38,389 nucleotides of DNA from Enterobacteria phage SfI, in sequence record JX509734. One strand, written 5' to 3'. Of the stretch, positions 546-23,518 are shown in pieces (the stretch's first letter is position 1; every line of letters begins with the position of its first letter). Under the pieces are notes generated by a model. It did not search any database. It was not told the DNA's origin and saw only the letters and a list, made by a program, of their open reading frames with translations. Both the position numbers and the translations under genes were made by a program.

Positions 546-2275
546 GCCGGAAATCTTACCCCAACGTAAATGCTGCCAATCAGTATGCCCGTGATGTCGT
601 GCGCGGAAAGATTGTGGCCTGCCAGTTTGTGATTCAGGCCTGCCAGCGCCATCTTGATGACCTGATGGCGGAAAAAAGTAAGTCGTTTCGTTACCGCTTC
701 GACAAGGACCTGGCTGAACGGGCCGCGAAATTTATTCAGCTGTTGCCACACACCAAGGGGGAGTGGGCATTCAAGAGGATGCCCATCACACTGGAACCGT
801 GGCAGCTCTTTGTGATCTGCTGTGCGTTTGGCTGGGTCAATAAAGGCTCCCGGCTGCGCCGCTTCAGGGAGGTGTATACCGAAATCCCCCGTAAGAACGG
901 CAAATCGGCAATCTCTGCCGGTGTTGCCCTGTATTGTTTTGCCTGTGATAACGAGTTTGGCGCGGAAGTGTATTCCGGTGCCACGACAGAGAAACAGGCG
1001 TGGGAAGTCTTTCGCCCGGCGCGACTGATGTGTAAACGCACACCCATGCTGACGGAAGCGTTCGGGATTGAGGTTAACGCCTCAAACATGAACCGTCCGG
1101 AGGATGGCGCGCGGTTTGAACCGCTGATCGGTAACCCCGGTGATGGTTCATCACCCCACTGTGCCGTGGTGGATGAATATCACGAGCACGCCACCGATGC
1201 GCTTTATACCACGATGCTTACCGGGATGGGCGCGCGACGTCAGCCACTGATGTGGGCCATCACCACCGCCGGGTACAACATTGAGGGGCCGTGCTACGAC
1301 AAGCGGCGGGGAGGTATCGAGATGCTCAACGGTTCGGTACCCAACGATGAACTGTTCGGGATCATCTATACCGTTGACGAAGGCGATGACTGGACCGACC
1401 CGCAGGTGCTGGAAAAAGCCAATCCAAATATTGGCGTGTCGGTTTATCGCGAATTTTTGTTAAGTCAGCAGCAGCGTGCGAAAAATAACGCCCGTCTGGC
1501 AAACGTCTTTAAAACAAAACACCTCAATATCTGGGTGTCGGCGCGTTCGGCGTATTTCAACCTGGTGAGCTGGCAGAGCTGCGAGGATAAATCACTGACC
1601 CTTGAGCAGTTCGAGGGGCAGCCGTGCATTCTGGCCTTTGACCTGGCGCGTAAGCTGGATATGAACAGCATGGCGCGACTTTATACCCGTGAGATTGACG
1701 GTAAAACGCATTACTACAGTGTGGCCCCGCGTTTCTGGGTACCGTATGACACGGTGTACAGCGTCGAGAAAACTGAAGATCGCCGGACCGCCGAACGCTT
1801 TCAGAAATGGGTGGAAATGGGCGTCCTGACCGTTACCGATGGTGCAGAGGTGGATTATCGCTACATCCTCGAAGAGGCCAAAGCGGCGAACAAAATCAGC
1901 CCGGTCAGCGAGTCACCCATCGACCCCTTCGGGGCGACCGGGCTCTCACATGACCTTGCTGATGAAGACCTGAATCCCGTCACTATCGTCCAGAACTTCA
2001 CCAATATGTCCGATCCGATGAAAGAGCTGGAAGCAGCGATTGAATCGGGACGTTTTCATCATGACGGCAATCCCATCATGACCTGGTGTATCGGCAACGT
2101 GGTCGGCAAAAACATGCCGGGTAACGATGATGTGGTGAAGCCTGTCAAGGAGCAGGCGGAAAACAAAATTGACGGTGCAGTTGCGCTGATTATGGCGGTT
2201 GGCAGAGCCATGCTGTACGAGAAAGAAGACACGCTGTCTGACCACATTGAGTCCTACGGGATCCGCTCGCTTTAA
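542..2275 (+). CDS. Terminase large subunit (ATPase/nuclease)
   Basis: 577-aa ORF translationally coupled to TerS; size and position typical of HK97-like TerL, followed by the portal gene. Confidence 0.88.
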
Positions 2276-2286
2276 CTGAGGTAATT

Positions 2287-2469
2287 ATGATCATGCTGAT
2301 TCTCGCGCCTCTGGTGGGCGTGCTGGGTGCGCTTTTGCTGGCATATGGTGCCTGGCTGATTTATCCCCCGGCGGGTTTTGTTGTTGCCGGGGCGTTGTGC
2401 CTGTTCTGGTCGTGGCTGGTAGCGCGATATCTCGATCGTACACAGCTGTCTGTTGGTGGAGGTAAATAG
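2287..2469 (+). CDS. Small hydrophobic protein (about 2 predicted TM helices), unknown function
   Basis: 60-aa ORF with GAGG RBS about 8 nt upstream; very hydrophobic sequence ([26 protein letters not shown]...); wedged between terL and portal. Confidence 0.4.
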
Positions 2470-3710
2470 TGTTCTTTTCGGGATTATTTCAACGAAAAAG
2501 TGACGCACCGGTGACCACGCCAGCAGAGCTGGCGGATGCCATCGGGTTGTCCTACGACACCTATACCGGAAAGCAGATCAGCAGTCAGCGGGCCATGCGA
2601 CTGACGGCGGTTTTTTCCTGCGTCAGAGTGCTGGCAGAGTCGGTCGGGATGTTGCCCTGCAATCTGTATCACCTGAACGGCAGCCTGAAGCAGAGAGCCA
2701 CCGGCGAACGTCTGCATAAACTGATCTCCACGCATCCCAATAGCTATATGACGCCGCAGGAGTTCTGGGAGCTGGTGGTCACCTGTCTGTGCCTGCGGGG
2801 AAATTTTTACGCCTACAAAGTGAAAGCATTTGGCGAAGTGGCTGAACTGCTGCCCGTCGATCCCGGTTGTGTGGTACCGAAGCTTAACAGTAGCTGGGAA
2901 CCGGTTTACCAGGTCACATTTCCGGACGGCTCCACGGATGTACTGAGCCAGGAAGATATCTGGCATGTGCGCACGCTGACGCTGGACGGTCTGGTGGGAC
3001 TGAATCCCATCGCCTATGCCCGCGAGGCAATATCGCTGGCGGCAGCGACCGAAGAGCACGGGGCCAGACTGTTCAGCAATGGCGCGGTGACGTCGGGTGT
3101 GTTGCGTACAGAGCAGACGCTGTCGGATCAGGCTTATGAGCGCCTGAAGAAAGATTTTGAGGAGCGTCACACCGGGCTTGGCAATGCTCACCGCCCGATG
3201 ATCCTTGAGATGGGGCTGGACTGGAAGTCGATGGCGTTGAACGCAGAGGACAGCCAGTTCCTGGAAACCCGCAAGTTTCAGCTTGAAGAAATCTGTCGTC
3301 TGTTCCGGGTGCCATTGCACATGGTGCAGAACACCGATCGCGCCACCTTCAACAATATCGAAGAACTGGGGCTCGGATTTATCAACTATTCACTGGTGCC
3401 GTATCTGACCCGCATCGAACAGCGGATCAACACCGGACTGGTACGAAAAAGTAAGCAGGGCGTTTATTACGCCAAATTTAACGCCGGGGCGTTACTGCGC
3501 GGGGATATGAAGTCCCGTTTTGAAGCCTACGCCACCGGGATTAACTGGGGAATTTACTCTCCCAATGACTGCCGCGACCTGGAAGATATGAATCCGCGTC
3601 CCGGTGGGAATGTCTATCTCACACCGATGAACATGACCACGAAACCCTCCGATGGCAGTAAAGCCGGTAAGCAGAAGGATAACGCCAATGCAGACGAAAC
3701 AACGTCTTGA
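2469..3710 (+). CDS. Portal protein (HK97 family)
   Basis: 413-aa ORF with GTG start preceded by GGAGG; length and position between TerL and prohead protease. Confidence 0.88.
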   Translation: MFFSGLFQRKSDAPVTTPAELADAIGLSYDTYTGKQISSQRAMRLTAVFSCVRVLAESVGMLPCNLYHLNGSLKQRATGERLHKLISTHPNSYMTPQEFWELVVTCLCLRGNFYAYKVKAFGEVAELLPVDPGCVVPKLNSSWEPVYQVTFPDGSTDVLSQEDIWHVRTLTLDGLVGLNPIAYAREAISLAAATEEHGARLFSNGAVTSGVLRTEQTLSDQAYERLKKDFEERHTGLGNAHRPMILEMGLDWKSMALNAEDSQFLETRKFQLEEICRLFRVPLHMVQNTDRATFNNIEELGLGFINYSLVPYLTRIEQRINTGLVRKSKQGVYYAKFNAGALLRGDMKSRFEAYATGINWGIYSPNDCRDLEDMNPRPGGNVYLTPMNMTTKPSDGSKAGKQKDNANADETTS

Positions 3711-4338
3711 TGTACCGCTGAGTCTGAAATCTGTCAGTGACTCCGGTGAGTTTGAAGGGTATGGCTCCGTCTTTGGTGTAAAGGACAGCCACGATGATGT
3801 GGTGATGTCCGGGGCATTTGCTGCTTCCCTGCGGGCGTGGAGTGACAGAAAAGCGTTACCTGCGCTGCTCTGGCAGCACCGCATGGATGAACCCATCGGT
3901 GTTTACACCGAAATGAAGGAAGACGATGTCGGGCTTTACGTCAGGGGACGGTTGCTTATTGATGATGATCCCCTCGCAAAACGCGCACATGCACACATGA
4001 AGGCCGGTTCGTTAACCGGCCTTTCTATTGGGTACGTCCTGAAAGACTGGGAATACGACCGGAGCAAAGAAGCCTTTCTGCTGAAAGAAATCGACCTCTG
4101 GGAAGTCAGCCTGGTGACGTTCCCGTCTAACGACGAGGCGCGGATCAGCGACGTCAAGAACGCACTGGCCCGCGGGGAAATCCCCGAACAGAAAAAAATC
4201 GAAAGAGTCCTGCGTGATGTCGGACTCTCCCGTACCCAGGCCAAAGCATTCATGGCCGGGGGCTATGGCGCACTGTCCCTGCGCGACGCTGAGGATGTGG
4301 GCTCTGCACTGAATGCACTGAAAAATCTGAACTTCTAA
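3652..4338 (+). CDS. Prohead maturation protease (HK97 gp4-like)
   Basis: 228-aa ORF between portal and major capsid; start could be the internal ATG near 3688 because 3652 overlaps the portal end. Confidence 0.8.
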   Translation: MAVKPVSRRITPMQTKQRLDVPLSLKSVSDSGEFEGYGSVFGVKDSHDDVVMSGAFAASLRAWSDRKALPALLWQHRMDEPIGVYTEMKEDDVGLYVRGRLLIDDDPLAKRAHAHMKAGSLTGLSIGYVLKDWEYDRSKEAFLLKEIDLWEVSLVTFPSNDEARISDVKNALARGEIPEQKKIERVLRDVGLSRTQAKAFMAGGYGALSLRDAEDVGSALNALKNLNF

Positions 4339-4352
4339 TCAGGAGAAATACG

Positions 4353-5558
4353 ATGGCGGTTGATATTAAAGATGTCGAACAGGTCGCGCAGGAGCTGCAG
4401 CAGAAGTTTGACGACTTCAAAGCAAAGAACGACAAGCGCGTGGATGCGATTGAGCAGGAAAAAGGCAAGCTTGCCGGGCAGGTGGAAACCCTGAACGGGA
4501 AACTCAGCGAGCTGGAAAATCTCAAAAGCGACCTTGAAAAAGAGCTGCTTGAGCTGAAACGTCCGGCAGGTGGTGCGCAAAATAAACTGGCCACCGAGCA
4601 TAAAGAGGCGTTTGTGGGCTTCCTGCGTAAAGGCCGTGAAGACGGTCTGCGCGATCTGGAGCGTAAGGCATTGCAGGTGGGTACCGATGAAGACGGTGGC
4701 TACGCCGTGCCGGAAGAACTGGATCGCAACATTCTTAACCTGCTGAAAGATGAAGTGGTGATGCGTCAGGAAGCCACGGTGATCACCGTTGGCGGTTCCG
4801 ACTACAAAAAACTGGTGAATCTGGGCGGTACGGCTTCCGGATGGGTGGGGGAAACGGATACGCGATCCCAGACTGCCACCTCCAGACTGGAGCTGATTGA
4901 ACCTCTCATGGGGGAAATTTACGGCAACCCGCAGGCTACCCAGAAAATGCTGGACGATGCCTTCTTCAACGTGGAGGCCTGGATCAACAGCGAGCTGGCA
5001 ACCGAATTTGCCGAACAGGAAGAAATTGCCTTTACCTCAGGCGATGGCACCAAGAAGCCGAAAGGGTTCCTGGCGTATGAATCCACTGATGAAACCGACA
5101 AGGTCCGGGCGTTCGGCAAACTTCAGCATATTGTATCCGGCGAAGCGACCGCGGTGACCGCAGACGCCATTATCAAACTGATTTACACGCTGCGTAAGGC
5201 ACACCGCACTGGCGCGAAGTTCATGATGAACAACAACAGCCTGTTTGCCATCCGTCTGCTGAAAGACACCGAGGGTAACTATCTGTGGCGTCCTGGGCTG
5301 GAACTGGGGCAGCCATCCTCTCTGGCGGGTTACGGTATCGCTGAAAACGAGCAGATGCCGGATATTGCCGCGGATGCGAAAGCCATTGCATTTGGTAACT
5401 TCAAACGGGGTTACACCATCGTTGACCGTATCGGTACCCGCATTCTTCGCGATCCGTACACCAATAAACCGTTTGTCGGTTTTTATACCACCAAGCGCAC
5501 CGGCGGCATGCTGGTCGATTCGCAGGCCATCAAACTGCTGAAGATTGCAGCGGCGTAA
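4353..5558 (+). CDS. Major capsid protein (HK97 fold) with N-terminal coiled-coil delta/scaffold domain
   Basis: 401-aa ORF; N-terminal about 100 aa is charged and coiled-coil-like (KLSELENLKSDLEKELLELK), as in HK97 gp5-type capsid precursors; follows the protease. Confidence 0.88.
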   Translation: MAVDIKDVEQVAQELQQKFDDFKAKNDKRVDAIEQEKGKLAGQVETLNGKLSELENLKSDLEKELLELKRPAGGAQNKLATEHKEAFVGFLRKGREDGLRDLERKALQVGTDEDGGYAVPEELDRNILNLLKDEVVMRQEATVITVGGSDYKKLVNLGGTASGWVGETDTRSQTATSRLELIEPLMGEIYGNPQATQKMLDDAFFNVEAWINSELATEFAEQEEIAFTSGDGTKKPKGFLAYESTDETDKVRAFGKLQHIVSGEATAVTADAIIKLIYTLRKAHRTGAKFMMNNNSLFAIRLLKDTEGNYLWRPGLELGQPSSLAGYGIAENEQMPDIAADAKAIAFGNFKRGYTIVDRIGTRILRDPYTNKPFVGFYTTKRTGGMLVDSQAIKLLKIAAA

Positions 5559-5565
5559 TCACTCA

Positions 5566-5585
5566 GGGGCGCGGAACCGCGCCCC
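5566..5585 (+). terminator. GC-rich stem-loop directly after the capsid gene (putative terminator or mRNA-stability hairpin)
   Basis: GGGGCGCG / CGCGCCCC 8-bp perfect stem with 4-nt loop, 8 nt after the capsid stop; the trailing U-tract is weak. Confidence 0.4.
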
Positions 5586-5607
5586 CTGTTCTGACGGGTG
5601 AAGAATC

Positions 5608-5808
5608 ATGATCCTGAAACAAGATCTGAAATGGTCACCGGACGGTATGCGTGTTGATGTCATTCGGGCCGGTGAGTATGACGACGGGACGCTTCCTGCC
5701 CGGGTGCAGGAGATTGCACTTCAGGCCGGGTTAGCAGAGCGCGGAACCAGTGCAAAAAGCAGTAAAGCGACAAAAGAGAAAAAAGCCACGACCAGTAAAG
5801 AGGGCTGA
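5608..5808 (+). CDS. Small hypothetical protein, Lys/Ser/Thr-rich C-terminus
   Basis: 66-aa ORF between capsid and connector genes; modest RBS (GGTGAAG). Confidence 0.35.
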   Translation: MILKQDLKWSPDGMRVDVIRAGEYDDGTLPARVQEIALQAGLAERGTSAKSSKATKEKKATTSKEG

Positions 5809-5810
5809 GT

Positions 5811-6163
5811 ATGCTTCTGACAATGGAAGAGATTAAAGCCCAACTCCGGCTGGATGAGGATTTCGATGCTGATGACGGCTGGATGAGGATTTCGATGCTG
5901 ATGCCCGCCATCTGCAACTGCTGGCCTGTGCGGCGCAAAAGCGGACGGAAACGTATCTGAACCGGAAGCTCTATGCTCCGGATGAAACCATTCCGGACAG
6001 CGATCCGGACGGGCTGCACCTGCCGGATGATATTCGTCTGGGGATGCTGATGCTTATCAGCCATTTTTACGAAAATCGCTCGTCGGTTACAGACGTTGAG
6101 AAAATGGAGTTGCCAATGAGCTTTAACTGGCTTGTCGGCCCGTACAGGTATTTCCCGCAATGA
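5811..6163 (+). pseudogene. Head-tail connector (gp6-like) gene disrupted by a 29-bp tandem duplication
   Basis: ATG at 5811 with GAGGG RBS. The 28-mer CGGCTGGATGAGGATTTCGATGCTGATG occurs at 5847-5874 and again at 5876-5903 (period 29). As written the frame stops at 5958-5960 (49 aa). Removing one copy gives a continuous gp6-like ORF (MLLTMEEIKAQLRLDEDFDAD...SFNWLVGPYRYFPQ) ending at 6163 with ATGA coupling to the next gene. Confidence 0.6.
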
Positions 6164-6570
6164 AAATTCGTCAGGCGCAGACCAGCGCAACCTACATTCT
6201 GCCGGACCCCGGTGAACTGAATAAACGCGTCCTGATCCGCCAGCGGGTGGATATGCCCGCGGATAACTTTGGCGTGGAGCCTCAATACCCGGTTGCGTTC
6301 CGGACATGGGCGAAGGTTGTCCAGACCAGTGCCACCACCTGGCAGGAAACCGCGCAGACCGGGGACGCCATCACCCATTACATCACCATTCGTTACCGCC
6401 GGGGGATCACCGCTGATTATGAGGTGGTCTGCGGTGACAGTGTGTACCGGGTGAAACGTCAGCGCGATCTGAACGGGGCGCGGCGCTTTCTGCTGCTGGA
6501 GTGTACGGAGCTGGGCGAATGTAGGCAGAGTCACGGAGGCAACAATGACGACTTCCTTTTTGCACGTTGA
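6160..6570 (+). CDS. Head closure / head-tail joining protein
   Basis: 136-aa ORF, ATGA-coupled to the connector frame; position in the head-tail adaptor block. Confidence 0.65.
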   Translation: MKIRQAQTSATYILPDPGELNKRVLIRQRVDMPADNFGVEPQYPVAFRTWAKVVQTSATTWQETAQTGDAITHYITIRYRRGITADYEVVCGDSVYRVKRQRDLNGARRFLLLECTELGECRQSHGGNNDDFLFAR

Positions 6571-7051
6571 TTTTCAGCAGCCCGCGGAGATGCGCTTTAA
6601 CCGCGCCCGTGTCCGGCGGGCGTTTGTCACGATTGGTCAGCGTCATATGCGTGATGCCCGTCGGCTGGTGATGCGCCGTGCGCGGTCGGCACCGGGTGAA
6701 AACCCCGGTTATCAGACCGGACGCCTGGCTCGTTCGATTGGTTACATGGTACCCAGAGCCAGTAAACATCGCCCCGGTTTTATGGCACGTATAGCCCCTA
6801 ACCAGCGTAATGGAGAGGGAAACCGCCGTATCACCGGTGATTTTTATCCGGCTTTTTTGTTCTATGGCGTGAGGCGAGGGGCAAAGCGTCGTCGCAGCCA
6901 TCATCGTGGTGCATCCGGTGGCAGCGGCTGGCGACTGGCTCCACGTAATAACTTCATGGTGGAAACGCTTGAAAAGAACCGCAGCTGGACACGCTATTTT
7001 CTGGCGCGGGAATTGCGTAAATCACTGAAGCCGGAGCGACGACACAGATGA
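6545..7051 (+). CDS. Tail component, HK97 gp10-like (basic C-terminus)
   Basis: 168-aa ORF in the adaptor block; family assignment from position and composition only. Confidence 0.55.
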   Translation: MTTSFLHVDFQQPAEMRFNRARVRRAFVTIGQRHMRDARRLVMRRARSAPGENPGYQTGRLARSIGYMVPRASKHRPGFMARIAPNQRNGEGNRRITGDFYPAFLFYGVRRGAKRRRSHHRGASGGSGWRLAPRNNFMVETLEKNRSWTRYFLARELRKSLKPERRHR

Positions 7052-7608
7052 AACTGACGCCTGTTATTGCTGCACTGCGTGCCCGCTGTCCGTATTTTGA
7101 AAACCGGGTGGCAGGCGCGGCCCAGTTCAAAAATCTGCCGGAGGTCGGAAAGCTGAGACTCCCGGCGGCGTATGTGGTACCGGGTGATGACTCTCCGGGA
7201 GAAAACAAAAGCCAGACCGACTACTGGCAGGAGCTGAAAGAGGGCTTCTCCGTGGTTGTCATACTGAGTAACGGGCGTGATGAGCGCGGTCAGTTTGCCT
7301 CGTATGATGTGGTGGACGATGTCCGGCAGATGCTCTTTAAGGCTCTGCTGGGCTGGAACCCGGAGGCGTGCGGTAACCCGATTACCTATGACGGCGGCAC
7401 GCTGCTGGATCTGAATCGTCATGAGCTGATTTATCAGTTCGATTTTTCGGTCATCAGCGAGCTGACTGAAGACGATACCCGCCAGCAGGATGATCTGAAC
7501 AGTCTGGATGAACTGCAAACGCTGGCGATTGATGTTGATTATCTCGAGCCCGGTAACGGGCCTGACGGCGATATCGAACATCACACCGAAATAACCCTTC
7601 CTTCCTGA
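7048..7608 (+). CDS. Neck / tail-completion protein, acidic C-terminus
   Basis: 186-aa ORF overlapping the previous stop by 4 nt; precedes the sheath module. Confidence 0.5.
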   Translation: MKLTPVIAALRARCPYFENRVAGAAQFKNLPEVGKLRLPAAYVVPGDDSPGENKSQTDYWQELKEGFSVVVILSNGRDERGQFASYDVVDDVRQMLFKALLGWNPEACGNPITYDGGTLLDLNRHELIYQFDFSVISELTEDDTRQQDDLNSLDELQTLAIDVDYLEPGNGPDGDIEHHTEITLPS

Positions 7609-7616
7609 GGATCCTC

Positions 7617-7787
7617 ATGTTTGTCAAACCTGTTAAAGGGCGGTCAGTTCCTGACCCTGCCCGCGGCGACCTTTTGCCCGCCGAGGGGCGAAATGTTGAT
7701 GAGAACAACTACTGGCTGCGCCGTGAAGCAGCGGGTGATATCCGGCGCGTGAATAAAAAGGTGAATACCGATGACGATAAGCTTTAA
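7617..7787 (+). CDS. Small protein preceding the tail sheath gene (DUF2635-like)
   Basis: 56-aa ORF (MFVKPVKGRSVPDPARGDLLPAEG...) with GAGGA RBS; overlaps the sheath start; not in the ORF track because it is under 60 aa. Confidence 0.45.
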   Translation: MFVKPVKGRSVPDPARGDLLPAEGRNVDENNYWLRREAAGDIRRVNKKVNTDDDKL

Positions 7788-9267
7788 CACCATTCCGTCG
7801 AATACGCTGGTTCCGTTGTTTTATGCGGAAATGGATAACCAGGCGGCGAATACTGCACAGGACAGCGGAGCATCGCTGCTGATTGGTCATGCCAATAACG
7901 GTGCAGAGATTGTTGCCAACAGTCTGGTGCTGATGCCATCGGCAGACTATGCACGCCAGATTTGTGGTGCGGGAAGTCAGCTGGCGCGTATGGTCGAGGC
8001 TTATCGCCAGACCGACCCGTTTGGTGAACTGTATGTGATTGCCGTTCCTGAATCCACGGGCGCGGCGGCAACAGTTACGCTGACGGTGACCGGCGCGGCA
8101 ACCGAAACCGGCACGGTGAATGTTTATGTGGGACGTACCCGCGTGCAGGCACCGGTGACCAACGGCGATAACGTCGCGACGATTGCCAGCAGTATCCAGG
8201 ATGCCATCAATGCCGTTCCGACCCTGCCGTTTACGGCTTCATCTTCGGCAGGCGTGGTCACACTGACCGCGCGTCATAAGGGGCTTTGCGGGAATGAAAT
8301 TCCTGTCAGCCTCAATTACTACGGCTTTGGTGGGGGCGAAGTGCTGCCAGCGGGCGTACAGATTGCCGTGGCGACGGGTACCGCCGGAACGGGCGCTCCT
8401 GTTCTCACCGGCGCGGTGGCTGCAATGGCGGATGAGCCGTTTGATTATATCGGCCTGCCGTTCAACGACACGGCCTCCGTTAACACGCTGGTGACCGAGA
8501 TGAACGATACCAGCGGTCGCTGGAGCTATGCGCGTCAGCTGTATGGTCATGTGTACACGGCAAAGATCGGCACGCTGTCAGAACTGGTGACCGCAGGTGA
8601 CCAGTTTAACCAGCAGCACATTACCCTGGCGGGATACGAAAAAGAGACCCAGACGCCTGCCGACGAGCTGGCGGCAAGCCGTACCGCCCGCGCAGCGGTG
8701 TTTATTCGCAACGATCCGGCACGTCCCACGCAGACCGGTGAGCTGGTGGGTATGCTGCCTGCGCCGAAGGGGAAACGGTTCACGATGACCGAACAACAGA
8801 CCCTGCTGTCTCATGGCGTGGCAACGGCGTATGTCGAAAGCGGGGTGCTGCGCATTCAGCGTGATGTCACCACGTACAGGAAAAACGCTTACGGTGTTGC
8901 GGATAACAGCTACCTCGACAGCGAGACGCTGCATACCAGCGCGTATGTACTGCGCAAACTGAAATCCGTCATTACCAGTAAGTACGGGCGTCACAAGCTT
9001 GCCAGCGACGGTACCCGCTTTGGTCCCGGTCAGGCGATTGTCACCCCGGCGGTGATCAAAGGGGAACTGCTGGCAACCTACCGTCAGCTTGAGCGTGCGG
9101 GGATCGTGGAAAACTACGAACTTTTTAAGCAGTACCTGGTTGTGGAGCGTGATGCCAGCGATCCGAACCGCCTGAACACGCTGTTCCCGCCTGACTATGT
9201 TAACCAGTTGCGTGTCTTTGCCGTGGTTAACCAGTTCCGTCTTCAGTATTCAGAGGAGTCCGCATAA
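7771..9267 (+). CDS. Contractile tail sheath protein (Mu gpL-like)
   Basis: 498-aa ORF followed immediately by a tube-sized ORF; sheath-like size and composition. Confidence 0.82.
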   Translation: MTISFNTIPSNTLVPLFYAEMDNQAANTAQDSGASLLIGHANNGAEIVANSLVLMPSADYARQICGAGSQLARMVEAYRQTDPFGELYVIAVPESTGAAATVTLTVTGAATETGTVNVYVGRTRVQAPVTNGDNVATIASSIQDAINAVPTLPFTASSSAGVVTLTARHKGLCGNEIPVSLNYYGFGGGEVLPAGVQIAVATGTAGTGAPVLTGAVAAMADEPFDYIGLPFNDTASVNTLVTEMNDTSGRWSYARQLYGHVYTAKIGTLSELVTAGDQFNQQHITLAGYEKETQTPADELAASRTARAAVFIRNDPARPTQTGELVGMLPAPKGKRFTMTEQQTLLSHGVATAYVESGVLRIQRDVTTYRKNAYGVADNSYLDSETLHTSAYVLRKLKSVITSKYGRHKLASDGTRFGPGQAIVTPAVIKGELLATYRQLERAGIVENYELFKQYLVVERDASDPNRLNTLFPPDYVNQLRVFAVVNQFRLQYSEESA

Positions 9268-9623
9268 TGGCCCGTATCGGGGGAACCTGTTATTTCAAAA
9301 TTGACGGTCAGCAGCTATCGCTGACCGGCGGCATTGAGGTGCCCATGAACAGGACGGTCAATGATGACATCATCGGCCTGGACGGTTCAGTGGACCGCAA
9401 GGAAACTCACCGTGCGCCTTATGTCAAAGGGACCTTCAAGGTGCCGAAGAATTTTCCGGTGAGCAAAATCACCTCGTCTGATGAGATGACCATCACTGCC
9501 GAGCTGGCGAACGGTCAGGTCTATGTATTGTCGTCCGCCTGGCTGCACGGAGAAGCGAACCATAATGCCGAAGAAGGCACGGTTGATCTTGAGTTCCACG
9601 GTGAAGAAGGGGATTACCAGTAA
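9267..9623 (+). CDS. Tail tube protein (Mu gpM-like)
   Basis: 118-aa ORF sharing a start/stop overlap with the sheath gene; canonical sheath-tube order. Confidence 0.78.
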   Translation: MARIGGTCYFKIDGQQLSLTGGIEVPMNRTVNDDIIGLDGSVDRKETHRAPYVKGTFKVPKNFPVSKITSSDEMTITAELANGQVYVLSSAWLHGEANHNAEEGTVDLEFHGEEGDYQ

Positions 9624-9892
9624 TGAAAGAGCTTGAGTTAAAGAAACCGATTACCGCTCATGGCGAGACACTCTCCGTACTGGAGTTTGATGAGCCCACC
9701 GGGAAAGATGTCCGCGAGCTGGGGTATCCCTACCAGATGAATCAGGATGAGTCCGTCAGACTTCTGGCGCATGTGGTATCGAAATACATTGTGCGGCTGG
9801 CGAAAGTGCCGCAAAGCTCTGTCGACCAGATGTCTCCGGCAGACCTGAATGCAGCGGCGTGGCTTGTGGCTGGTTTTTTCCTCCAGGCCTGA
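9623..9892 (+). CDS. Tail assembly chaperone, zero-frame product
   Basis: 89-aa ORF between tube and tape measure; ends ...AGFFLQA just downstream of a slippery heptamer. Confidence 0.7.
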   Translation: MKELELKKPITAHGETLSVLEFDEPTGKDVRELGYPYQMNQDESVRLLAHVVSKYIVRLAKVPQSSVDQMSPADLNAAAWLVAGFFLQA

Positions 9893-10041
9893 CGGCTGAA
9901 TACCTCACTGATCGCTTCTTTGACTGCGCCAGTTACTGGCGCATTAATCCTTTCGAATTGCTGAATATGCCGATCAGTGAAATTCCCTTACTGGTCAGTC
10001 AGGCAAACAGGATAGAGCAGGAGAAACGCACACATGGCTGA
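9859..10041 (+). CDS. Tail assembly chaperone -1 frame extension (expressed by frameshift as a fusion of about 139 aa)
   Basis: ORF in the -1 frame relative to 9623..9892, overlapping its 3-prime end and terminating just inside the tape-measure gene start; classic chaperone pair arrangement. Confidence 0.6.
   Translation: MACGWFFPPGLTAEYLTDRFFDCASYWRINPFELLNMPISEIPLLVSQANRIEQEKRTHG
9874..9880 (+). promoter_or_regulatory. Programmed -1 ribosomal frameshift slippery heptamer T TTT TTC
   Basis: Zero-frame codons GGT TTT TTC at 9872-9880; X XXY YYZ heptamer at 9874-9880; a -1 slip places ribosomes in the 9859..10041 frame. Confidence 0.6.
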
Positions 10042-11869
10042 ATTTGAGCTTAAGGCGTTGATCACCGGTGTCGACAGGCTTTCTCCCGCGCTGTCGAAAA
10101 TGCAAAAGAAAATCCGGGGATTTAAACGCCAGGCGGAAGAAGCGTCACAGGGTGGGCTGGCGCTTGGTGGCGGACTGGCAGCGGGTCTGACGCTTTCCCT
10201 GAAATCTTATGCCGATCAGGAAAACGCCGCCACCGGGCTGAAAGTCGCTATGATGGATGCGAACGGCGAGATTGGAAAGCGCTTTCAGGACATCAATAAA
10301 CTGGCTATTGGCCTGGGTAACCAGCTACCCGGTACAACGGCTGATTTCCAGAACATGATGCAGATGCTGGTGCGTCAGGGGATCCCGGCAGAAAACATTC
10401 TGAGTGGTGTGGGTAAAGCGACAGCTTATCTTGCGGTACAACTGAAAAAAACACCGGAAGCGGCTGCTGAGTTTGCTGCAAAGATGCAGGATGCTACCGG
10501 AACGGCGTCAGAAGACATGATGGGGCTGTTCGACACTATCCAGAAGGCGTTTTATCTGGGCGTGGACGATACCAACATGTTGTCCTTCTTCACTAAAACC
10601 AGCTCTGTTCTGAAGATGGTGAACAAGGACGGTCTTCAGGCTGCACAGAGCCTTGCCCCCATCAGCGTCATGATGGATCAGATGGGGATGAACGGGGAGT
10701 CGGCAGGTAACGCCCTGCGAAAAGTTATCCAGTCCGGATTAAGCGTTAAGAAAATCAGGGACGTCAATAAAGTCATGGCCCGCCAGAAACTCGGAGTGCA
10801 GCTCGATTTTACTGACGGCAAAGGGAGTTTTGGCGGTCTTGATAACATGTTCAGGCAACTGGCAAAGCTGCGAAAACTGACCGACGTTAAGCGAACAGGT
10901 GTACTTAAGGCAATATTTGGTGATGATGCCGAAACCCTTCAGGTGGTCAATGCTCTGATCGATAAAGGAAAGGATGGTTACGATCAGATCCAGCAGAAGA
11001 TGAATAAACAGGCCAGCCTGAATAAACGTGTTCAGGCACAGCTTGGTACGCTGTCCAACCTGTGGGAGGCAATGACGGGGACCGCAACTAACGGTCTTGC
11101 AGCTATTGGCGGCGCATTTTCTGGTGACGCTAAAAATATCACGCAATGGCTGGGGGAGTTGGGGGAGAAATTCACGAAGTTTGCGGATGAAAATCCCCGG
11201 GTTATTCGCGGCGTCGTCGGGCTTGCTGCTGGTCTTGCGATTCTGAAACTGGGATTGATGGGCGTTGGCGGTGCCATCAGTATTGTCAGCAGGATCATGT
11301 CGATGACGCCGATTGGCATGATTGCGACGGCGATAGCCCTGGCTGCGGGATTAATTATCACTAACTGGGATGTTGTCGGACCTTATTTTAAGAAACTCTG
11401 GGAAACCATTGGTCCTTATTTTGAGGCTGGCTGGGAACTCCTTAAGAAAGTTTTTGCCTGGTCGCCGCTGGGGATGGTGATCAATAACTGGGGGCCGGTT
11501 GTTAAGTGGTTTCAGGATATGTGGGACAAGCTGAAGCCAATTATTGAGTGGTTTACCGACAGTTCCGGTGACACGGTCGATGCCATTAACTCTGCGCAGT
11601 GGGGCGCGGGTGCTTATGATGCTTATGGGACGGGAATACCGGCGCGGGGATACACACCTTATCCGGCGGTAGATCCGGCTCAGTCAAACAACGCCTCCGG
11701 TGCCACAGGCCCGAATCCCTTCATGATTAACAAAGCTTCTGCGCCAAAAGTTGATGGTGAGATCAAGGTCTCTTTTATGAATTCGCCCCCGGGTATGCGG
11801 GTTATGGAAACGCGATCCAGCGGTTTTGATGTCAGCCATGATGTTGGCTATACGCGCTTTGGCAGGTAA
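10034..11869 (+). CDS. Tail tape measure protein
   Basis: 611-aa ORF immediately after the chaperone pair; Ala/Gly-rich with hydrophobic segments typical of tape measures. Confidence 0.85.
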   Translation: MAEFELKALITGVDRLSPALSKMQKKIRGFKRQAEEASQGGLALGGGLAAGLTLSLKSYADQENAATGLKVAMMDANGEIGKRFQDINKLAIGLGNQLPGTTADFQNMMQMLVRQGIPAENILSGVGKATAYLAVQLKKTPEAAAEFAAKMQDATGTASEDMMGLFDTIQKAFYLGVDDTNMLSFFTKTSSVLKMVNKDGLQAAQSLAPISVMMDQMGMNGESAGNALRKVIQSGLSVKKIRDVNKVMARQKLGVQLDFTDGKGSFGGLDNMFRQLAKLRKLTDVKRTGVLKAIFGDDAETLQVVNALIDKGKDGYDQIQQKMNKQASLNKRVQAQLGTLSNLWEAMTGTATNGLAAIGGAFSGDAKNITQWLGELGEKFTKFADENPRVIRGVVGLAAGLAILKLGLMGVGGAISIVSRIMSMTPIGMIATAIALAAGLIITNWDVVGPYFKKLWETIGPYFEAGWELLKKVFAWSPLGMVINNWGPVVKWFQDMWDKLKPIIEWFTDSSGDTVDAINSAQWGAGAYDAYGTGIPARGYTPYPAVDPAQSNNASGATGPNPFMINKASAPKVDGEIKVSFMNSPPGMRVMETRSSGFDVSHDVGYTRFGR

Positions 11870-11929
11870 TGAAAAATTAATCTGTTAATGAGTCCCACTC
11901 CGGTGGGATTTTTTATGTACGGAGTTTAT

Positions 11930-13258
11930 ATGACGTGGAAAGACAGACTTCAGGACGCGTCATTTCGCGGTGTGCCGTTTAAGGTTGAAGAAGAAAGTGC
12001 GGGAACCGGTCGTCGTGTGGAAACGCACGAATACCCGAACCGCGACAAACCCTATACCGAAGACCTGGGGAAAATCACTTTCCGCCCGTCCATCACAGCT
12101 TATGTGGTGGGAGATGACTGCTTTGACCAGCGCGATCGCCTGATTGACGCGCTGAATAAACCCGGTCCCGGCACGCTTGTCCATCCGACTTACGGTGAGC
12201 TGAAAGTCTGTGTTGACGGGGAAGTTCGGGTCAGCACATCGAAGAGTGAAGGGCGTATTGTCCGCTTTGACCTGAAGTTTGTCGAAGCGGGAGAACTCTC
12301 TTACCCCACTTCAGGTGCGGCGACGGCGCAGACGCTGATGTCATCCTGTTCTGCACTGGATGACTGCATCAGTGACAGCTTCAGTGGTTTCAGTATCGAT
12401 GGCGTGGCAGATTTTGTGCAGAACGACGTCGTCGGTAATGCCAGCACAATGCTTGGGTATGTTTCTGATGCGATGAAAGTGGTGGATTCTGCCGTATCGG
12501 ATGCCGCCAGGCTGTTGCAGGGGGATATCTCGGTACTTCTGCCACCGCCATCGTCAGGCAAAAATTTCGTTGAGCAGGTGCAGAAAATGTGGCGTACCGG
12601 GAAACGCCTTTATGGTAACGCCAGCGACCTGGTCACCATGATCAAAACGCTTTCCGGTGTCAGCCTCGGCAGCGATCTGCAACCGCGCGGCGTCTGGAAA
12701 ACGGACAGTAAAACCAACGCCACGGCGACGCAGCAGCGTAACGTGGTTGCCAGCACCCTTCGTACGACCGCAATCAGCGAAGCGGCGTATGCCGTCACAC
12801 GATTGCCTGCGCCCACAACTTCCGCGGTGATGCAGAATGCCACAATGGGGCAGTCAACAACACCCGCGCAGAGCACCGGCTGGCCTTCTGTCACGCATCC
12901 GGCACTGAACAATGCACCGGCGGTGAAAAACACGGTTGACCTGCCAACGTGGGAAGAACTGACCGACATTCGCGACACACTGAATACGGCAATTGATAAG
13001 GAGTTGTCCCGTACAACCAGTGATGCGTTGTTTCTGGCGCTGCGCCGGGTGAAAGCAGATCTGAATGCGGATATCAACACGCGCCTTGAACAGTCTGCAC
13101 GGATCATTCAGCGCACGCCGGATGAGGTTTTACCCGCGCTGGTGCTGGCGGCGACCTTGTTTGATAACGCGGCGCGTGACGCGGACATTATCCGGCGTAA
13201 TGCCATTACGCATCCCGGCTTTGTGCCGGTGATCCCTCTGAAGGTGCCAGTGCAATGA
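11930..13258 (+). CDS. Mu gpN-like DNA circularisation / tail protein
   Basis: Track ORF 11888..13258; GGAG RBS favours the ATG at 11930, giving the N-terminus MTWKDRLQDASFRGVPF. Confidence 0.68.
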   Translation: MTWKDRLQDASFRGVPFKVEEESAGTGRRVETHEYPNRDKPYTEDLGKITFRPSITAYVVGDDCFDQRDRLIDALNKPGPGTLVHPTYGELKVCVDGEVRVSTSKSEGRIVRFDLKFVEAGELSYPTSGAATAQTLMSSCSALDDCISDSFSGFSIDGVADFVQNDVVGNASTMLGYVSDAMKVVDSAVSDAARLLQGDISVLLPPPSSGKNFVEQVQKMWRTGKRLYGNASDLVTMIKTLSGVSLGSDLQPRGVWKTDSKTNATATQQRNVVASTLRTTAISEAAYAVTRLPAPTTSAVMQNATMGQSTTPAQSTGWPSVTHPALNNAPAVKNTVDLPTWEELTDIRDTLNTAIDKELSRTTSDALFLALRRVKADLNADINTRLEQSARIIQRTPDEVLPALVLAATLFDNAARDADIIRRNAITHPGFVPVIPLKVPVQ

Positions 13259-14334
13259 ACGACAATGTCACGCTACGGGTAAATGGCCGGGAGTGGAATG
13301 GCTGGACATCGGTGCGCATCGGTGCCGGTGTTGAACGACTGGCGCGGGATTTCAGTGTGGAGATCACCCGCCAGTGGCCGGGAGATGAGGGTATTACCAC
13401 GCTTCAGTCGCGCATTAAAAACGGTTCAAAAGTGGAGGTGCTGATTGGTGATGAGCTGGTGATCACCGGCTGGGTGGAGGCGACGCCCGTTCGTTACGAT
13501 GCCCGTTCGGTCAGCACCGGTATTGCCGGACGTAGTCTGACGGCTGACCTGATTGACTGTGCAGCCGAACCGACACAGTTTAACGGACGCTCGCTGGTGC
13601 AGATTGCGCAGGCGCTTGCTGCGCCTTTCGGCATTGAGGTGGTGAACAGCGGTGCGCCGTCGGGTGTTATTCCTGATGTTCAGCCTGATCACGGTGAAAC
13701 GGTGATTGAGGTAATCAACAAAATACTCGGTCAGCAGCAGGCACTGGCTTACGACGACCCGCACGGCAGGCTGGTGATTGGCGGTATTGGCTCAACGCGG
13801 GCACATACTGCGCTGGTACTCGGGGAAAACATCCTTTCCTGTGATACGGAGAAGAGTATCCGGGAGCGGTTTTCTGTTTACCAGGTGGCGGGGCAGCGTG
13901 CCGGAAACGACGATGATTTCGGTGAGGCCACCACCACCGCGCTGCGGGCCCGCACAGAGGACGCATTTATTGCCCGTTACCGTCCGATGTATATCAGGCA
14001 GACAGGGCAGGCTACGGGGGCAGGCTGTATTGCCCGTGCGGACTTTGAAGCCAGACAACGGGCGGCGCGGACGGATGAAACCACCTACGTGGTGCAGGGC
14101 TGGCGACAGGGTAACGGTACGCTGTGGCAGCCCAACCAGCGGGTGATTGTCTTTGATCCGGTCTGTGGTTTCGACAATACCGAACTGCTTGTTTCGGAAG
14201 TCACGTTTACTCAGGACCAGAACGGCACCCTGACGGAAATCCGTGTCGGCCCACCTGATGCTTATCTGCCTGAACCCGAAGCCCCCGGCGCGCGAAAAAA
14301 GAAAAAAGCCAGAGTACAGGAGGACCCGTTCTGA
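13255..14334 (+). CDS. Baseplate hub / tail protein (Mu gpP-like)
   Basis: 359-aa ORF coupled to the previous gene; position in the Mu-type baseplate block. Confidence 0.7.
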   Translation: MNDNVTLRVNGREWNGWTSVRIGAGVERLARDFSVEITRQWPGDEGITTLQSRIKNGSKVEVLIGDELVITGWVEATPVRYDARSVSTGIAGRSLTADLIDCAAEPTQFNGRSLVQIAQALAAPFGIEVVNSGAPSGVIPDVQPDHGETVIEVINKILGQQQALAYDDPHGRLVIGGIGSTRAHTALVLGENILSCDTEKSIRERFSVYQVAGQRAGNDDDFGEATTTALRARTEDAFIARYRPMYIRQTGQATGAGCIARADFEARQRAARTDETTYVVQGWRQGNGTLWQPNQRVIVFDPVCGFDNTELLVSEVTFTQDQNGTLTEIRVGPPDAYLPEPEAPGARKKKKARVQEDPF

Positions 14335-14882
14335 TGAGGACGATTGAAGCCATGCAGCGACAACTCCTCGGCCTGATTGGGCGGGCCGTGGTGAAAAGCA
14401 TCAGTGCCGCCACGAAATGTCAGACCGTGGATGTGTCTCTGATTGCCGGTGAACCCAAAGCTGGGGTTGAACATCTTGAACCCTACGGTTTTACCGCAAG
14501 GGCAAACAGCGGTGCGGAAGCGGTGGTGTTGTTTCCGGATGGCGACCGTTCTCATGCGGTGGTTGTTACGGTGTCGGACCGGCGCTACCGCCTGAAAGGG
14601 CTGCAGACGGGTGAGGTGGCTGTCTATGACGATCAGGGGCAGTCCGTGACGCTGACCCGGGAGGGGATCGTGGTGGACGGTGCAGGTAAAACGATCACGT
14701 TTCGCAATGCACCTGAAGCACGTTTTGAAATGGACCTGGAAGTGACAGGACAGGTGAAAGACCTGTGCGACTCCGGCGGCACCACCATGTCAGCGATGCG
14801 GCTTGCCTATAACGGGCATCGTCACAGAGAGAACGGTCAGGGCAGTAACACCGACAAACCTGATAAAGCGATGGAGGCATGA
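14334..14882 (+). CDS. Baseplate spike / assembly protein V-like
   Basis: 182-aa ORF, start overlapping the previous stop; baseplate block order. Confidence 0.65.
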   Translation: MRTIEAMQRQLLGLIGRAVVKSISAATKCQTVDVSLIAGEPKAGVEHLEPYGFTARANSGAEAVVLFPDGDRSHAVVVTVSDRRYRLKGLQTGEVAVYDDQGQSVTLTREGIVVDGAGKTITFRNAPEARFEMDLEVTGQVKDLCDSGGTTMSAMRLAYNGHRHRENGQGSNTDKPDKAMEA

Positions 14883-15307
14883 TGGAACTGTGGCTGACGG
14901 TGAACGGTAAACGCACCTGCGCCAGCGCACCGCTGGATCCGCTGACCCGCGCCGTGGTGATTTCCCTGTTTACCTGGCGGCGGGCGGAGCCTGATGACAA
15001 CGCCGACGTCCCGATGGGATGGTGGGGGGATACCTGGCCTGCGGTACAGAATGACCGTTACGGCTCCCGACTGTGGCTGCTTCAGCGCAGCAAACTGACC
15101 AATCAGCTGGTGCAGACGGTAAGGGGGTATATCCGCGAATGCCTGCAATGGATGATTGATGACGGCGTGGTGTCCCGTATTGATCTGGATATCCGCCGCA
15201 CCGGGATTAATGAACTGGGTAACAGTATCACTCTCTGGCGTCGTGACGGACCGGTAATGATTTCTTTTGATGATCTGTGGAGTGCGATAACGCATGGCGG
15301 ACAGTGA
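14879..15307 (+). CDS. Baseplate protein (Mu gp46 / gpW-like)
   Basis: 142-aa ORF with 4-nt overlap to the previous gene. Confidence 0.7.
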   Translation: MMELWLTVNGKRTCASAPLDPLTRAVVISLFTWRRAEPDDNADVPMGWWGDTWPAVQNDRYGSRLWLLQRSKLTNQLVQTVRGYIRECLQWMIDDGVVSRIDLDIRRTGINELGNSITLWRRDGPVMISFDDLWSAITHGGQ

Positions 15308-16352
15308 ATTTCAGCGCCCGACGCTGGCAGAAAATATCAGTATGCTCCGTAACGATTTATTCGCCAGGCTGGACGTCAGCGACACGCTCCGGCGCATGGA
15401 TGAAGACGTGCGGGCAAAGGTGTATGCGGCGGCGCTGCATACGGTTTACGGGTACATCGATTATCTGGCAATGAATATGCTGCCTGACCTGTGCGATGAG
15501 TCCTGGCTGGCGCGACATGCTGCGATGAAACGGTGTCCGCGCAAGGGGGCCACGGCTGCCAGCGGGTATATGCGCTGGGAAGGTGTCAGCGATGGCCTGA
15601 AGGTGACTGCCGGGAGCGTGATTCAGCGCGATGACCTGGTTCAGTACACGGCAACTGCCGATGCAACCAGCTCCGGTGGTGTCCTGCGTGTGCCGATCAC
15701 TTGCTCAACTACAGGCGCGGTCGGTAACGCTGACGACGGTACGGCATTAATCCTGGTCACGCCGGTGAATGGTCTGCCGTCTTCCGGTGTGGCTGACACC
15801 CTGACAGGCGGATTTGATACTGAAGAGCTGGAAACGTGGCGCGCCCGCGTCATTGAGCGGTATTACTGGACGCCTCAGGGCGGGGCTGACGGGGACTATG
15901 TCGTCTGGGCTAAAGAAGTGCCAGGCATTACCCGTGCATGGACATACCGCCACTGGATGGGAACGGGAACTGTCGGTGTGATGATTGCCAGCAGTGACCT
16001 GATTAATCCCATTCCGGAAGAATCAACGGAAACGGCAGCAAGACAACATATCGGGCCACTGGCCCCGGTGGCAGGCTCTGATTTGTATGTATTCAGGCCG
16101 GTGGCACATACGGTGGATTTTCATATCCGCGTGACGCCGGACACACCAGAAATACGGGCTGCCATTACCGCGGAGTTGCGTTCGTTCCTGCTGCGTGATG
16201 GTTATCCGCAGGGAGAACTGAAGGTGTCACGTATCAGTGAAGCGATTTCCGGTGCGAACGGGGAATACAGCCATCAGTTGCTTGCACCGGCGGACAATAT
16301 CTCCATTGCAAAAAATGAACTGGCGGTACTGGGGACGATTTCATGGACGTGA
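15294..16352 (+). CDS. Baseplate J-like protein (Mu gp47-like)
   Basis: 352-aa ORF; size and position typical of baseplate J. Confidence 0.78.
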
Positions 16353-16927
16353 CAAACGATGATTACATCCGTCTGTTGTCGGCACTGTTGCCACCCGGTC
16401 CGGCGTGGTCAGCCAGAGATCCGGCGATTGCCGGTGCGGCACCGTCATTAACCCGCGTTCATCAGCGTGCGGATGCCCTGATGCGGGAGCTGGATCCGCG
16501 CACCACCACTGAACTGATAAACCGCTGGGAGCGTCTGTGCGGTCTGCCGGATGAATGTATTCCCGCAGGGACACAGACCCTTCGCCAGCGTCAGCAACGA
16601 CTGGATGCGAAGGTTAACCTGGCGGGCGGCATCAATGAGGATTTTTACCTTGCACAGCTTGCTGCCCTGGGCAGACCAGACGCTACCATCACGCGATACG
16701 ACAAAAGCACGTTCACCTGCTCATCTGCCTGTACTGACGCGGTGAATGCACCGGAATGGCGGTATTACTGGCAGGTCAACATGCCAGTCGCCACCAACAC
16801 CACCTGGATGACATGTGGCGATCCCTGTGATTCCGCGCTGCGCTTCTGGGGGGACACCGTTGTCGAGTGTGTGCTTAACAAACTCTGCCCGTCGCATACC
16901 TATGTGATTTTTAAATATCCGGAGTAA
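16343..16927 (+). CDS. Tail protein, Mu gp48 / YmfQ-like (DUF2313)
   Basis: 194-aa ORF between baseplate J and the tail fibre gene. Confidence 0.65.
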
Positions 16928-16930
16928 TCC

Positions 16931-17581
16931 ATGCATCGTATAGACACGAAAACCGCGCAGAAGGATAAGTTCGGCGCGGGTAAGAACGGTTTTACCCGTG
17001 GTAACCCCCAGACTGGCACGCCTGCCACCGATCTGGATGATGACTACTTTGACATGTTGCAGGAGGAGCTTTGCAGCGTGGTGGAGGCATCCGGTGCCAG
17101 CCTGGAGAAGGGGCGGCACGATCAGTTGCTTACCGCACTTCGCGCGCTGCTGTTAAGCCGCAAGAATCCGTTTGGCGATATCAAATCGGATGGCACGGTG
17201 AAAACGGCTCTCGAAAACCTTGGTTTGGGAGAAGCAGCTAAAAGGAATGTAGGTACAGGGGCGAATCAGATACCTGATATGAGCCTGTTCGCGTCAAGTA
17301 ATACCGCAACGGCTGCTGCGCAAAAATTTCCGTCTGGATTAATTTTACAGTGCGGTCAGTTGAATGGCTCCCCTAATGTATCTTCAACATACGGGATGAG
17401 GTTCCCGATGACATTCTCAAGAGTCCTTGCTGTCACAGTTACATTGAACGTTACTGGCGCGTCAGGGCAGCCGACTGTATCGGCGACAAATGTCCATAAC
17501 ACTGGATTTGATATTACAGTGTCGCCCGGTTCAGGATATGGTTCATCTGCTGATGCGTATTACATTGCAATGGGATATTAA
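16931..17581 (+). CDS. Tail fibre protein (short; AT-rich receptor-binding C-terminus)
   Basis: 216-aa ORF with N-terminus [17 protein letters not shown]; the C-terminal half drops markedly in GC. Confidence 0.72.
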
Positions 17582-17585
17582 CGAA

Positions 17586-17993
17586 ATGTCATATTTTTAT
17601 TCTGCATCGACAAACGGATTTTATTCGACTGAATTTCACGGCACCAATATTCCTGATGATGCAGTGGAAATCTCGGAATCAGAGTGGAAAACACTGATTA
17701 ATTCGCAGAGTGTAACAAAAATGATTACCTGTGGTGAGAATGGTCACCCTGTCATTGTTGACCGTCCTTCTCCAACACCAGAACAATTAGCCTTAATAAA
17801 TAATGAAAAGAAATCTGCACTGATAGCAGAGGCAACGAATGTAATAGCGCCGCTTCAGGATGCGGTTGATTTAGATATGGCAACAGATGATGAAACGAAA
17901 CTGTTACTGGCATGGAAAAAATATCGCGCACTATTGATGCGTGTTGATATAAAAAATACAGAGTGGCCGAAAAAACCAGAGAGCAATCTATAA
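17586..17993 (+). CDS. Tail fibre assembly chaperone (Tfa-like)
   Basis: Track ORF 17490..17993; functional start taken as the ATG at 17586 (MSYFYSASTNGFYS...), 5 nt after the fibre stop. Confidence 0.68.
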   Translation: MSYFYSASTNGFYSTEFHGTNIPDDAVEISESEWKTLINSQSVTKMITCGENGHPVIVDRPSPTPEQLALINNEKKSALIAEATNVIAPLQDAVDLDMATDDETKLLLAWKKYRALLMRVDIKNTEWPKKPESNL

Positions 17994-18163
17994 GAGAAAA
18001 TTCGTTATTGGATGAAAAGCGAGACATCTAATTATAACAGCATATGGTTTTTCTAATGATAGCTCCTTCAACTTTATAGTATCTCATATACTCTAGAATA
18101 TAGCTCTAAATGAGGGTTTGTTGTATACGGCAACCACTCCATTTTTATTCCTGATAGGGATAT

Positions 18164-18185
18164 AACCCGTCGAAAAAGACGGGTT
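18164..18185. terminator. Stem-loop between convergent tfa and gtrC (possible bidirectional terminator)
   Basis: AACCCGTC / GACGGGTT 8-bp perfect stem with GAAAAA loop, between the convergent ends of tfa (+) and gtrC (-); U-tracts are weak. Confidence 0.4.
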
Positions 18186-18226
18186 ATTCATTCGTTAGTG
18201 TGGTTTATATGGTAGGGGGCAATTTA

Positions 18227-19747: not shown

Positions 19748-19749
19748 GG

Positions 19750-20670
19750 TTATTTTCTACCTTTCTTCAAAATATACTTAGGTCTTGATTTTGTTTCTAA
19801 GTAAATTCTACCTATATATTCACCGAGAACACCAATCCCGATCAGTTGCACTCCACCCAAGAAAAGTATTGATACAAGCAGGGAGGGATACCCGCGTACT
19901 GGGTTACCAAAGACAAGGGTGTCTATAATCATCCATGCACCATATAAAAATGAAATGCTTGCAACAAACAAGCCTATATAAGTCCATACGCGAAGAGGAA
20001 AGGTTGAAAAACTTGTGATACCTTCCAGTGCCAGATTCCATAATTTCCAGCCATTAAATTTTGAGATGCCAGCAACACGCTCTGCGCGTACATATTCAAC
20101 GACATCCGTCTGACCACCCACCCAGCTCAGTATGCCTTTCATGAAAAGATTGCGCTCAGGCAACAGTTTAATGTTCTCCACAACCTCACGAGACATGAGT
20201 CGAAAATCTCCGACATTTTCCTCGATCTTTGGGGTGCTTATTTTGTTGTGTAATTTATAGAACCACTCAGCTGTCTTACGTTTCAGTCGTCCATCAGTTG
20301 AGCGGTCTGAACGTTTAGCAAGCACCATGTCAGCACCTGCCTGCCACTTTTCAATAAGATGAGGGATAACCTCAATTGGGTCTTGCAGGTCGACATCAAT
20401 AGGAATTACAGCATCGCCGCTTGCATGGTCTAACCCTGCAAATAAGGCTGGTTCTTTACCAAAGTTGCGTGTAAATGACAGCGGAACAACTAGCGGGTCT
20501 GAAACAGCCAGCGCGTTAATAATTGACTCTGTGGCATCTTTACTTCCGTCATTTATGAATACAATTTCTACTTCATATGGCTTCAACTCTTGGAATTCAC
20601 GTACCGTTTTATAGAAAACAGGTATCGCTTCTTCTTCATTGAAGACAGGAACGACAAGAGATATTTTCAT
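19750..20670 (-). CDS. gtrB: Bactoprenol glucosyltransferase GtrB (GT2 family)
   Basis: 306-aa ORF ([17 protein letters not shown]...) with C-terminal TM segments; coupled to gtrA upstream. Confidence 0.88.
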
Positions 20671-21029: not shown

Positions 21030-21230
21030 TTATTTAATCAATGAGCTCTGAAAGGCATGAAGTCTATCATCCAAGTCTCAATTGATCGATACTTGCTATG
21101 TCTGATGAGACAAAACTGAGACACATAAGGCCTCACAATGGCTTGCAAGGCTTTACATGTTTTGATGTGGTGGGACGTGTGAGCGCAGTGTTGATGGGAT
21201 AATCCTTTGAATTACAAGCGGATTCTTATA

Positions 21231-23511: not shown

Positions 23512-23518
23512 ATTGGCC

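Follow-up and report, generated by a model that had tools for sequence, protein, structure and literature searches.

SfI is a serotype-converting phage of Shigella flexneri with a genome of 38,389 bp (Sun et al. 2013, PMC3636060), and this sequence, at its full length, is the window analysed in our study, which agrees exactly with the publication in length and in ORF coordinates. The authors had already described the phage as a combination of a myovirus-type structural module with a lambda immunity and replication module (PMC3636060), the early region (window 23000-34000) being about 98 % identical to phage lambda according to the same paper and the cI, rexA, rexB, cro and cII proteins being 100 % identical to their lambda counterparts (Table S1, PMC3636060). 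The sequence was derived from a SOAPdenovo 1.04 assembly of Illumina GAIIx paired-end reads from the lysogenic strain 019, not from virion DNA, and this assembly comprised 376 contigs and scaffolds (PMC3636060). A contig extract was combined with a PCR-sequenced attP fragment and then re-linearised; the PCR checks described concern the attP and cos sites only, and none is described for orf8 (PMC3636060). When induced, SfI formed plaques and was propagated on strain 036, it lysogenised 34 strains (10 of serotype Y and 24 of serotype X), and electron microscopy revealed complete particles with a head as well as a long, contractile tail (PMC3636060). In Table 1 of the source paper, two lambda rows duplicate the SfV coordinates (2-2,194; 6,053-18,042), evidently through a copy-paste mistake, and this shows that proofreading of the record and the paper was limited.

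Our study concerns orf8 of this genome, a gene of the gp6-like connector or Ad1 family of head–tail adaptors. In HK97 (gp6) and SPP1 (gp15), the adaptor is required for head completion and tail joining. Adaptors of this family form a ring on the portal, and for SfI the attached tails of its virions are indirect evidence of such a role. Orf8 lies across a short tandem repeat in the deposited sequence, and the known errors of short-read data are of relevance to its interpretation. By far the most characteristic systematic error of Illumina sequencing is a GGT in which the T is miscalled as G (Meacham et al., PMC3295828). Sequence-specific errors of GA-era data are strand-specific and begin at most 10 nt after GGC; in most of them the preceding base is copied, and de novo assembly is made significantly harder (Nakamura et al., PMC3141275). 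In de Bruijn assemblies, those of SOAPdenovo2 included, discordant bases accumulate at a distance of one k-mer from the contig ends, and overlapping contigs within scaffolds are mishandled by SOAPdenovo2, with a gap inserted between them (Briskine and Shimizu, PMC5368935).

The repeat and the adaptor gene in the SfI record

Tandem Repeats Finder identified a repeat at 5847-5903 with a period of 29, 2.0 copies, a 100 % match and a score of 114. A separate repeat search aligned 5847-5875 with 5876-5904 as a direct, head-to-tail repeat of 97 % identity with an unlike 29th base, and returned no other direct repeat that is short and near-tandem from the whole 38,389-bp window. The 28-mer CGGCTGGATGAGGATTTCGATGCTGATG is present at 5847-5874 and again at 5876-5903, and is followed by A at 5875 in the first copy and by C at 5904 in the second, the two units being identical at 28/29 positions. 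An exact repeat of 28 nt at a distance of 29 cannot be a product of chance. The junction in the record reads GATGCTGATGA followed directly by CGGCTGGATGAGG, and a single copy at this site would read GATGCTGATGACCGCC. The features of the locus, together with three further substitutions discussed below, are listed in Table 1.

Table 1. Features of the SfI window that bear on the repeat in orf8, in order of position
Feature	Position	Strand	Remarks
Private substitution G>T	452		Met>Ile, small terminase
Private substitution A>G	1311		Glu>Gly, large terminase
Private substitution T>G	1314		Val>Gly, large terminase
Major capsid protein gene	4353..5558	+	Upstream, HK97-type head-neck module; PF05065 in syntenic loci
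orf7, small ORF between the capsid gene and orf8	5608-5808		ORF list and published table
orf8, gp6-like head–tail adaptor (Ad1) gene	5811..6163	+	Frameshifted as written
Native repeat copy	5847..5875	+	28-mer plus A; agrees with all relatives (SfII, SfIV, E. coli YZ22MPE54 alignment)
TGA in the downstream (native C-terminal) frame	5873..5875	+	Just ahead of the second copy; three-frame translation
Extra 29 nt	5876..5904	+	Exact copy of the 28-mer plus C; absent from every relative
Aberrant base C, template A	5904..5904	+	Minus strand: T to G in GGCGG-T
Premature TGA	5958..5960	+	Ends the ATG 5811 frame after 49 codons
Head completion/closure protein gene (orf9)	6160..6570	+	Pfam PF05521 Phage_HCP, 79 bits
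Neck1/tail completion gene	6545-7051		PHROG 879
Tail terminator gene	7048-7608		Follows the Neck1 gene

As written, the C-terminal part of the orf8 protein has no usable start upstream of ATG 6044, and the sole ORF listed in the native C-terminal frame is 6044-6163. This downstream frame ends at 6163 and overlaps the ATG of the next gene (6160) in an ATGA. Removal of 5876-5904 results in an intact gene of 324 nt with a product of 107 aa, and this product matched Pfam PF05135 with 40.8 bits (cutoff 21.2) and PHROG 40, 'head-tail adaptor Ad1', with 1.8e-39, whereas a profile search with the 49-aa product as written gave no family match. The corrected adaptor is 100 % identical to SfII_08 and to E. 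coli WP_000927710.1, the 324-nt genes of these relatives being annotated "head-tail connector protein", and its sequence weakly matched chain 9lbn_I of a solved structure, an 'adaptor protein gp5' (E = 0.02). The order of the module is of the HK97 type (capsid, orf7, orf8, PF05521 head completion, Neck1, tail terminator) and was the same in nine related loci.

Much of this had been anticipated by the original prediction, which was made from the letters of the sequence. The period-29 repeat at 5847-5904 was recovered by both repeat programs; the ORF list and translation reproduced the stop of the ATG 5811 frame after 49 codons at 5958-5960, including the exact tail that had been quoted; the continuation to 6163 and the ATGA coupling are as described; and the gp6-like identity was borne out by both profile databases. 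The proposal that removal of one unit restores the frame was correct; deletion of 5876-5904 yields D-A-D-D-R-H as in SfII and WP_000927710.1. The restored sequence that had been given, D-A-D-A-R-H, results from deletion of the other unit, has A for D at residue 22 and occurs in no relative, the unlike last base of the repeat having been overlooked.

The real SfI gene is most likely intact and, to judge from its corrected translation, an ordinary gp6-like adaptor of 107 aa, the same as that of SfII. By analogy, it would act as an ordinary bridge from the portal to the head-closure protein and the tail, and the corrected protein has no unusual feature. The frameshift in orf8 is not new, as the published annotation already lists 5811->6163 as "Pseudo gene", without explanation (Table S1, PMC3636060). 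A later comment on orf8 was looked for in the comparative paper on SfIV and none was found. A frameshift in the portal gene was also suspected, as Table S1 gives 371 aa compared to 414 aa in ST64B. This was rejected, since a full ORF of 413 codons runs from GTG 2469 to 3710 without an indel relative to SfII, and the published 2595-3710 reflects another choice of start.

Comparison with related phages and prophages

Comparison with related genomes, which the original prediction had proposed as a check, found every related sequence to be 29 bp shorter than SfI at this site. This was the case for SfII, SfIV, other phages and some 840 E. coli genomes; an identical adaptor was encoded by prophages in 841 of the 5,426 E. 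coli genomes searched. In the alignment with SfII, SfIV and E. coli YZ22MPE54, the relatives read GATGCTGATGA followed by CCGCC, which identifies the first unit, ending in A, as native and 5876-5904 as the extra segment. Among nine independent assemblies that encode an identical tape-measure protein, the connector was 107 aa in 9/9. The duplication was encountered in no relative, SfII, SfIV and the others being single-copy.

The agreement of SfI with its closest relatives extends well beyond this site. With 5876-5904 removed, the window showed zero differences from 1315 to 21286 compared to a prophage of E. coli YZ22MPE54 (locus L005, NZ_CP139337.1). Loci L126, L128 and L131 shared at least 99.93 % identity with the corrected window along a stretch of about 21 kb that takes in the gtrI-type gene, and L133 shared 99.97 % over its span of 17.3 kb. 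No further indel relative to SfII or the E. coli prophage was seen in the first 21 kb.

The junction was sought in larger collections. A probe of 36 nt spanning it returned 0 matches in GTDB representatives, IMG/VR, JGI metagenomes, the 5,426 E. coli genomes and 50,697 phage records; a 24-nt junction probe was found in 0 of 134 fetched loci; and the 49-aa product was on no contig of an assembly index of 153 billion genes. The C at 5904 was equally private. Its 33-mer (GATGCTGATGCCCGCC...) was absent from GTDB representatives and IMG/VR, and the allele was carried by none of the 841 matching E. coli genomes (BLAST, 5,426 genomes) and by 0/134 loci. The A allele was present in at least 120 viral contigs and in 132/134 loci. 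An origin of C as a natural second allele from a co-resident prophage was considered and is unsupported, given the lack of a C allele in GTDB, IMG/VR and the 5,426 E. coli genomes.

These comparisons also bear on the distribution and composition of SfI-like elements. The SfI structural module was found together with a 506-aa glycosyltransferase in the gtrI position, gtrB and gtrA in six prophages (L005, L126, L127, L128, L131 and L132). The prophage of YZ22MPE54, a pork isolate, occupies 14402-35666 of its locus and is essentially base-identical to SfI over 21 kb, indicating that the SfI-type serotype-conversion cassette circulates outside Shigella flexneri. At about 26201 of the window, in gam/kil, a length difference of a single base (A) from the E. 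coli prophage lies within a lambda-like stretch of 98 % identity, and this could be either natural variation or a further error of the record.

Probable base-calling errors and the proposed origin of the repeat

The identity of the aberrant base is informative. Read on the minus strand, the native sequence around it is ...GATGGCGG-T-CATC, with this T replaced by G in the record, such that C at 5904 corresponds to a change of GGT to GGG directly after GGC. Sites of this type, where the T belongs to a GGT that has GGC within 10 nt upstream, make up 0.41 % of window positions. The native copy itself begins C-GGC, the GGC at 5848-5850 being an error-trigger motif for plus-strand Illumina reads, and the 28-mer block is thus flanked by convergent triggers on both strands. 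The first 21 kb of the record contain three other private substitutions (452, 1311 and 1314), which are shared by 0/6 near-identical relatives. All four, including 5904, lie at most 10 nt after GGC and have a new base equal to the preceding base (4/4). This signature is seen in 7.25 % of random substitutions, and the corresponding p^4 is ~3e-5 in a test that was post hoc, although based on a published definition. The substitutions at 452, 1311 and 1314 are probably uncorrected systematic errors of the Illumina GAIIx, and the record appears to contain a number of such errors, the C at 5904 among them.

Our study considers it very probable, judging from the assembled sequence, that the 29-nt repeat is a short-read assembly error in the deposited SfI sequence rather than a property of the phage. 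Of the two options left by the original prediction, an inactivating duplication and an artefact, the evidence favours the latter. Strand-specific systematic miscalls at the site would have generated a sibling k-mer, with the 28-mer followed by C beside the 28-mer followed by A, and this second k-mer path may have led to a fork in the graph or a break of the contig. One contig would then have ended in the 28-mer plus A, and the next would have started with the 28-mer plus C, followed by CCGCC. These two ends would share a true overlap of 29 nt in which the miscalled base is the sole mismatch. Had the overlapping ends been concatenated during scaffolding or gap closing, instead of merged, the outcome would be the 28-mer plus A, the 28-mer plus C and then CCGCC, as observed, and the extra segment 5876-5904 would represent the start of the second contig. 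If C is a read error, an assembly artefact would be expected to put it where it is, at the very end of the block. An odd k of 29 would suit the block of 28+1 nt and is within the limit of 31 permitted by SOAPdenovo 1.04, but this is a matter of consistency only, as the SfI paper gives no k. Under the SOAPdenovo2 convention, the discordant base lies at K+1, an even position, and 29 fits only when the boundary is shifted by one base (PMC5368935). A literature search yielded no specific account of GapCloser or SOAPdenovo making exactly such concatenations. Since the authors kept the sequence and annotated a pseudogene, reads in support of the repeat may have been before them.

A real duplication in the prophage of strain 019, inactivating the adaptor and with C due either to a further mutation or to a misread at an error-prone site, is in our view unlikely. 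Tandem duplications revert readily, and plaque-forming phage could accordingly be rare precise-deletion revertants, produced by recombination or slippage, or could be supplied with the adaptor in trans by another prophage. Complementation of this kind is conceivable given how common identical-adaptor prophages are (841/5,426 E. coli genomes). Retention of the repeat by the authors, with orf8 labelled a pseudogene, also accords with a real duplication, as does the absence of an induction titre from the source paper, which leaves room for a low yield (PMC3636060). However, the copies left by simple slippage are identical, yet copy 2 here ends in another base. With zero other differences in about 20 kb, it is very unlikely that a separate substitution fell precisely on the boundary of the repeat, and if C is taken to be a misread, the duplicated unit would have had to end by coincidence at a type of site that accounts for 0.41 % of positions. 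The junction is present in no other assembly searched, and the phage underwent lytic propagation and established lysogeny in 34 strains (PMC3636060). Plaques, lysogens and tailed virions are hard to reconcile with a dead adaptor gene, and they contradict the suggestion in the original prediction of a defective or decaying phage. It is more doubtful still that a real 29-nt duplication acts on an essential neck gene as an unstable lesion of the on/off kind, with infectious SfI arising only through collapse of the repeat or an adaptor borrowed from a co-resident prophage; if true, virion production in this serotype-converting phage would be gated by a repeat.

The remaining explanations fare worse on the available evidence. 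The described combination of a contig extract with a PCR-sequenced attP fragment, followed by re-linearisation, offered an occasion for a slip of manual editing or contig merging by the authors, rather than the assembler, while the prophage was stitched together (PMC3636060). Nevertheless, none of the joins described is near 5.9 kb, their places being attP (about 21-22 kb) and the terminase/cos ends, and the prophage reportedly came from one contig or scaffold (PMC3636060), making a manual slip very improbable. Recoding of a real repeat would reconcile a viable phage with a frameshifted record, since a -1 shift anywhere in 5876-5957, by ribosomal frameshifting or transcriptional slippage, restores the native C-terminus and would produce an adaptor 10 residues longer. 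We regard this as scarcely credible: 5811-5957 contains no canonical X_XXY_YYZ heptamer in frame 0, its only homopolymer run of at least four is AAAA at 5937, and the insert occurs in no relative, hence there is no conservation to hint at a programmed signal.

Implications and comparison with described systems

The biological weight of this finding is small, since SfI most likely has an intact adaptor gene identical to the SfII one, and the practical value of the finding lies in the correction of a public reference genome. The SfI reference probably contains a false pseudogene in an essential morphogenesis gene and, in addition, three false non-synonymous substitutions in the terminase genes. 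Such errors can spread to comparative genomics, pseudogene counts, the calling of 'defective prophages' and protein databases. The locus also provides a worked example of a class of error that can be read from sequence alone, that is, a near-tandem repeat of k-mer size with copies that are unlike only at the last base, where the difference is of the GGT to GGG type.

Compared to the gp6-like connector or Ad1 family (PF05135, Phage_connect_1; PHROG 40), the corrected SfI product shares the profile, the small size (107 aa, where about 100-110 aa is typical) and the position between the capsid and head-closure genes, whereas the ORF in the record differs in being split, and its frame is uninterrupted only without 5876-5904. 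Genuine short tandem duplications, which arise by slipped-strand mispairing, resemble the SfI repeat in their head-to-tail layout, a length not divisible by three and an early stop codon, but the SfI repeat departs from them in its unlike boundary base, its absence from other assemblies and the intact phenotype of the phage. With regard to Illumina sequence-specific errors, the record is alike both in the change of GGT to GGG after GGC and in the presence of the same signature at the other private substitutions. Join errors at the contig ends of de Bruijn assemblies have in common with the SfI record a SOAPdenovo and GAIIx origin, a repeat length in the k-mer range and a discordant base at the end of the block; the literature on these errors describes a bias at position k and the insertion of gaps, whereas the outcome in SfI is a concatenation.
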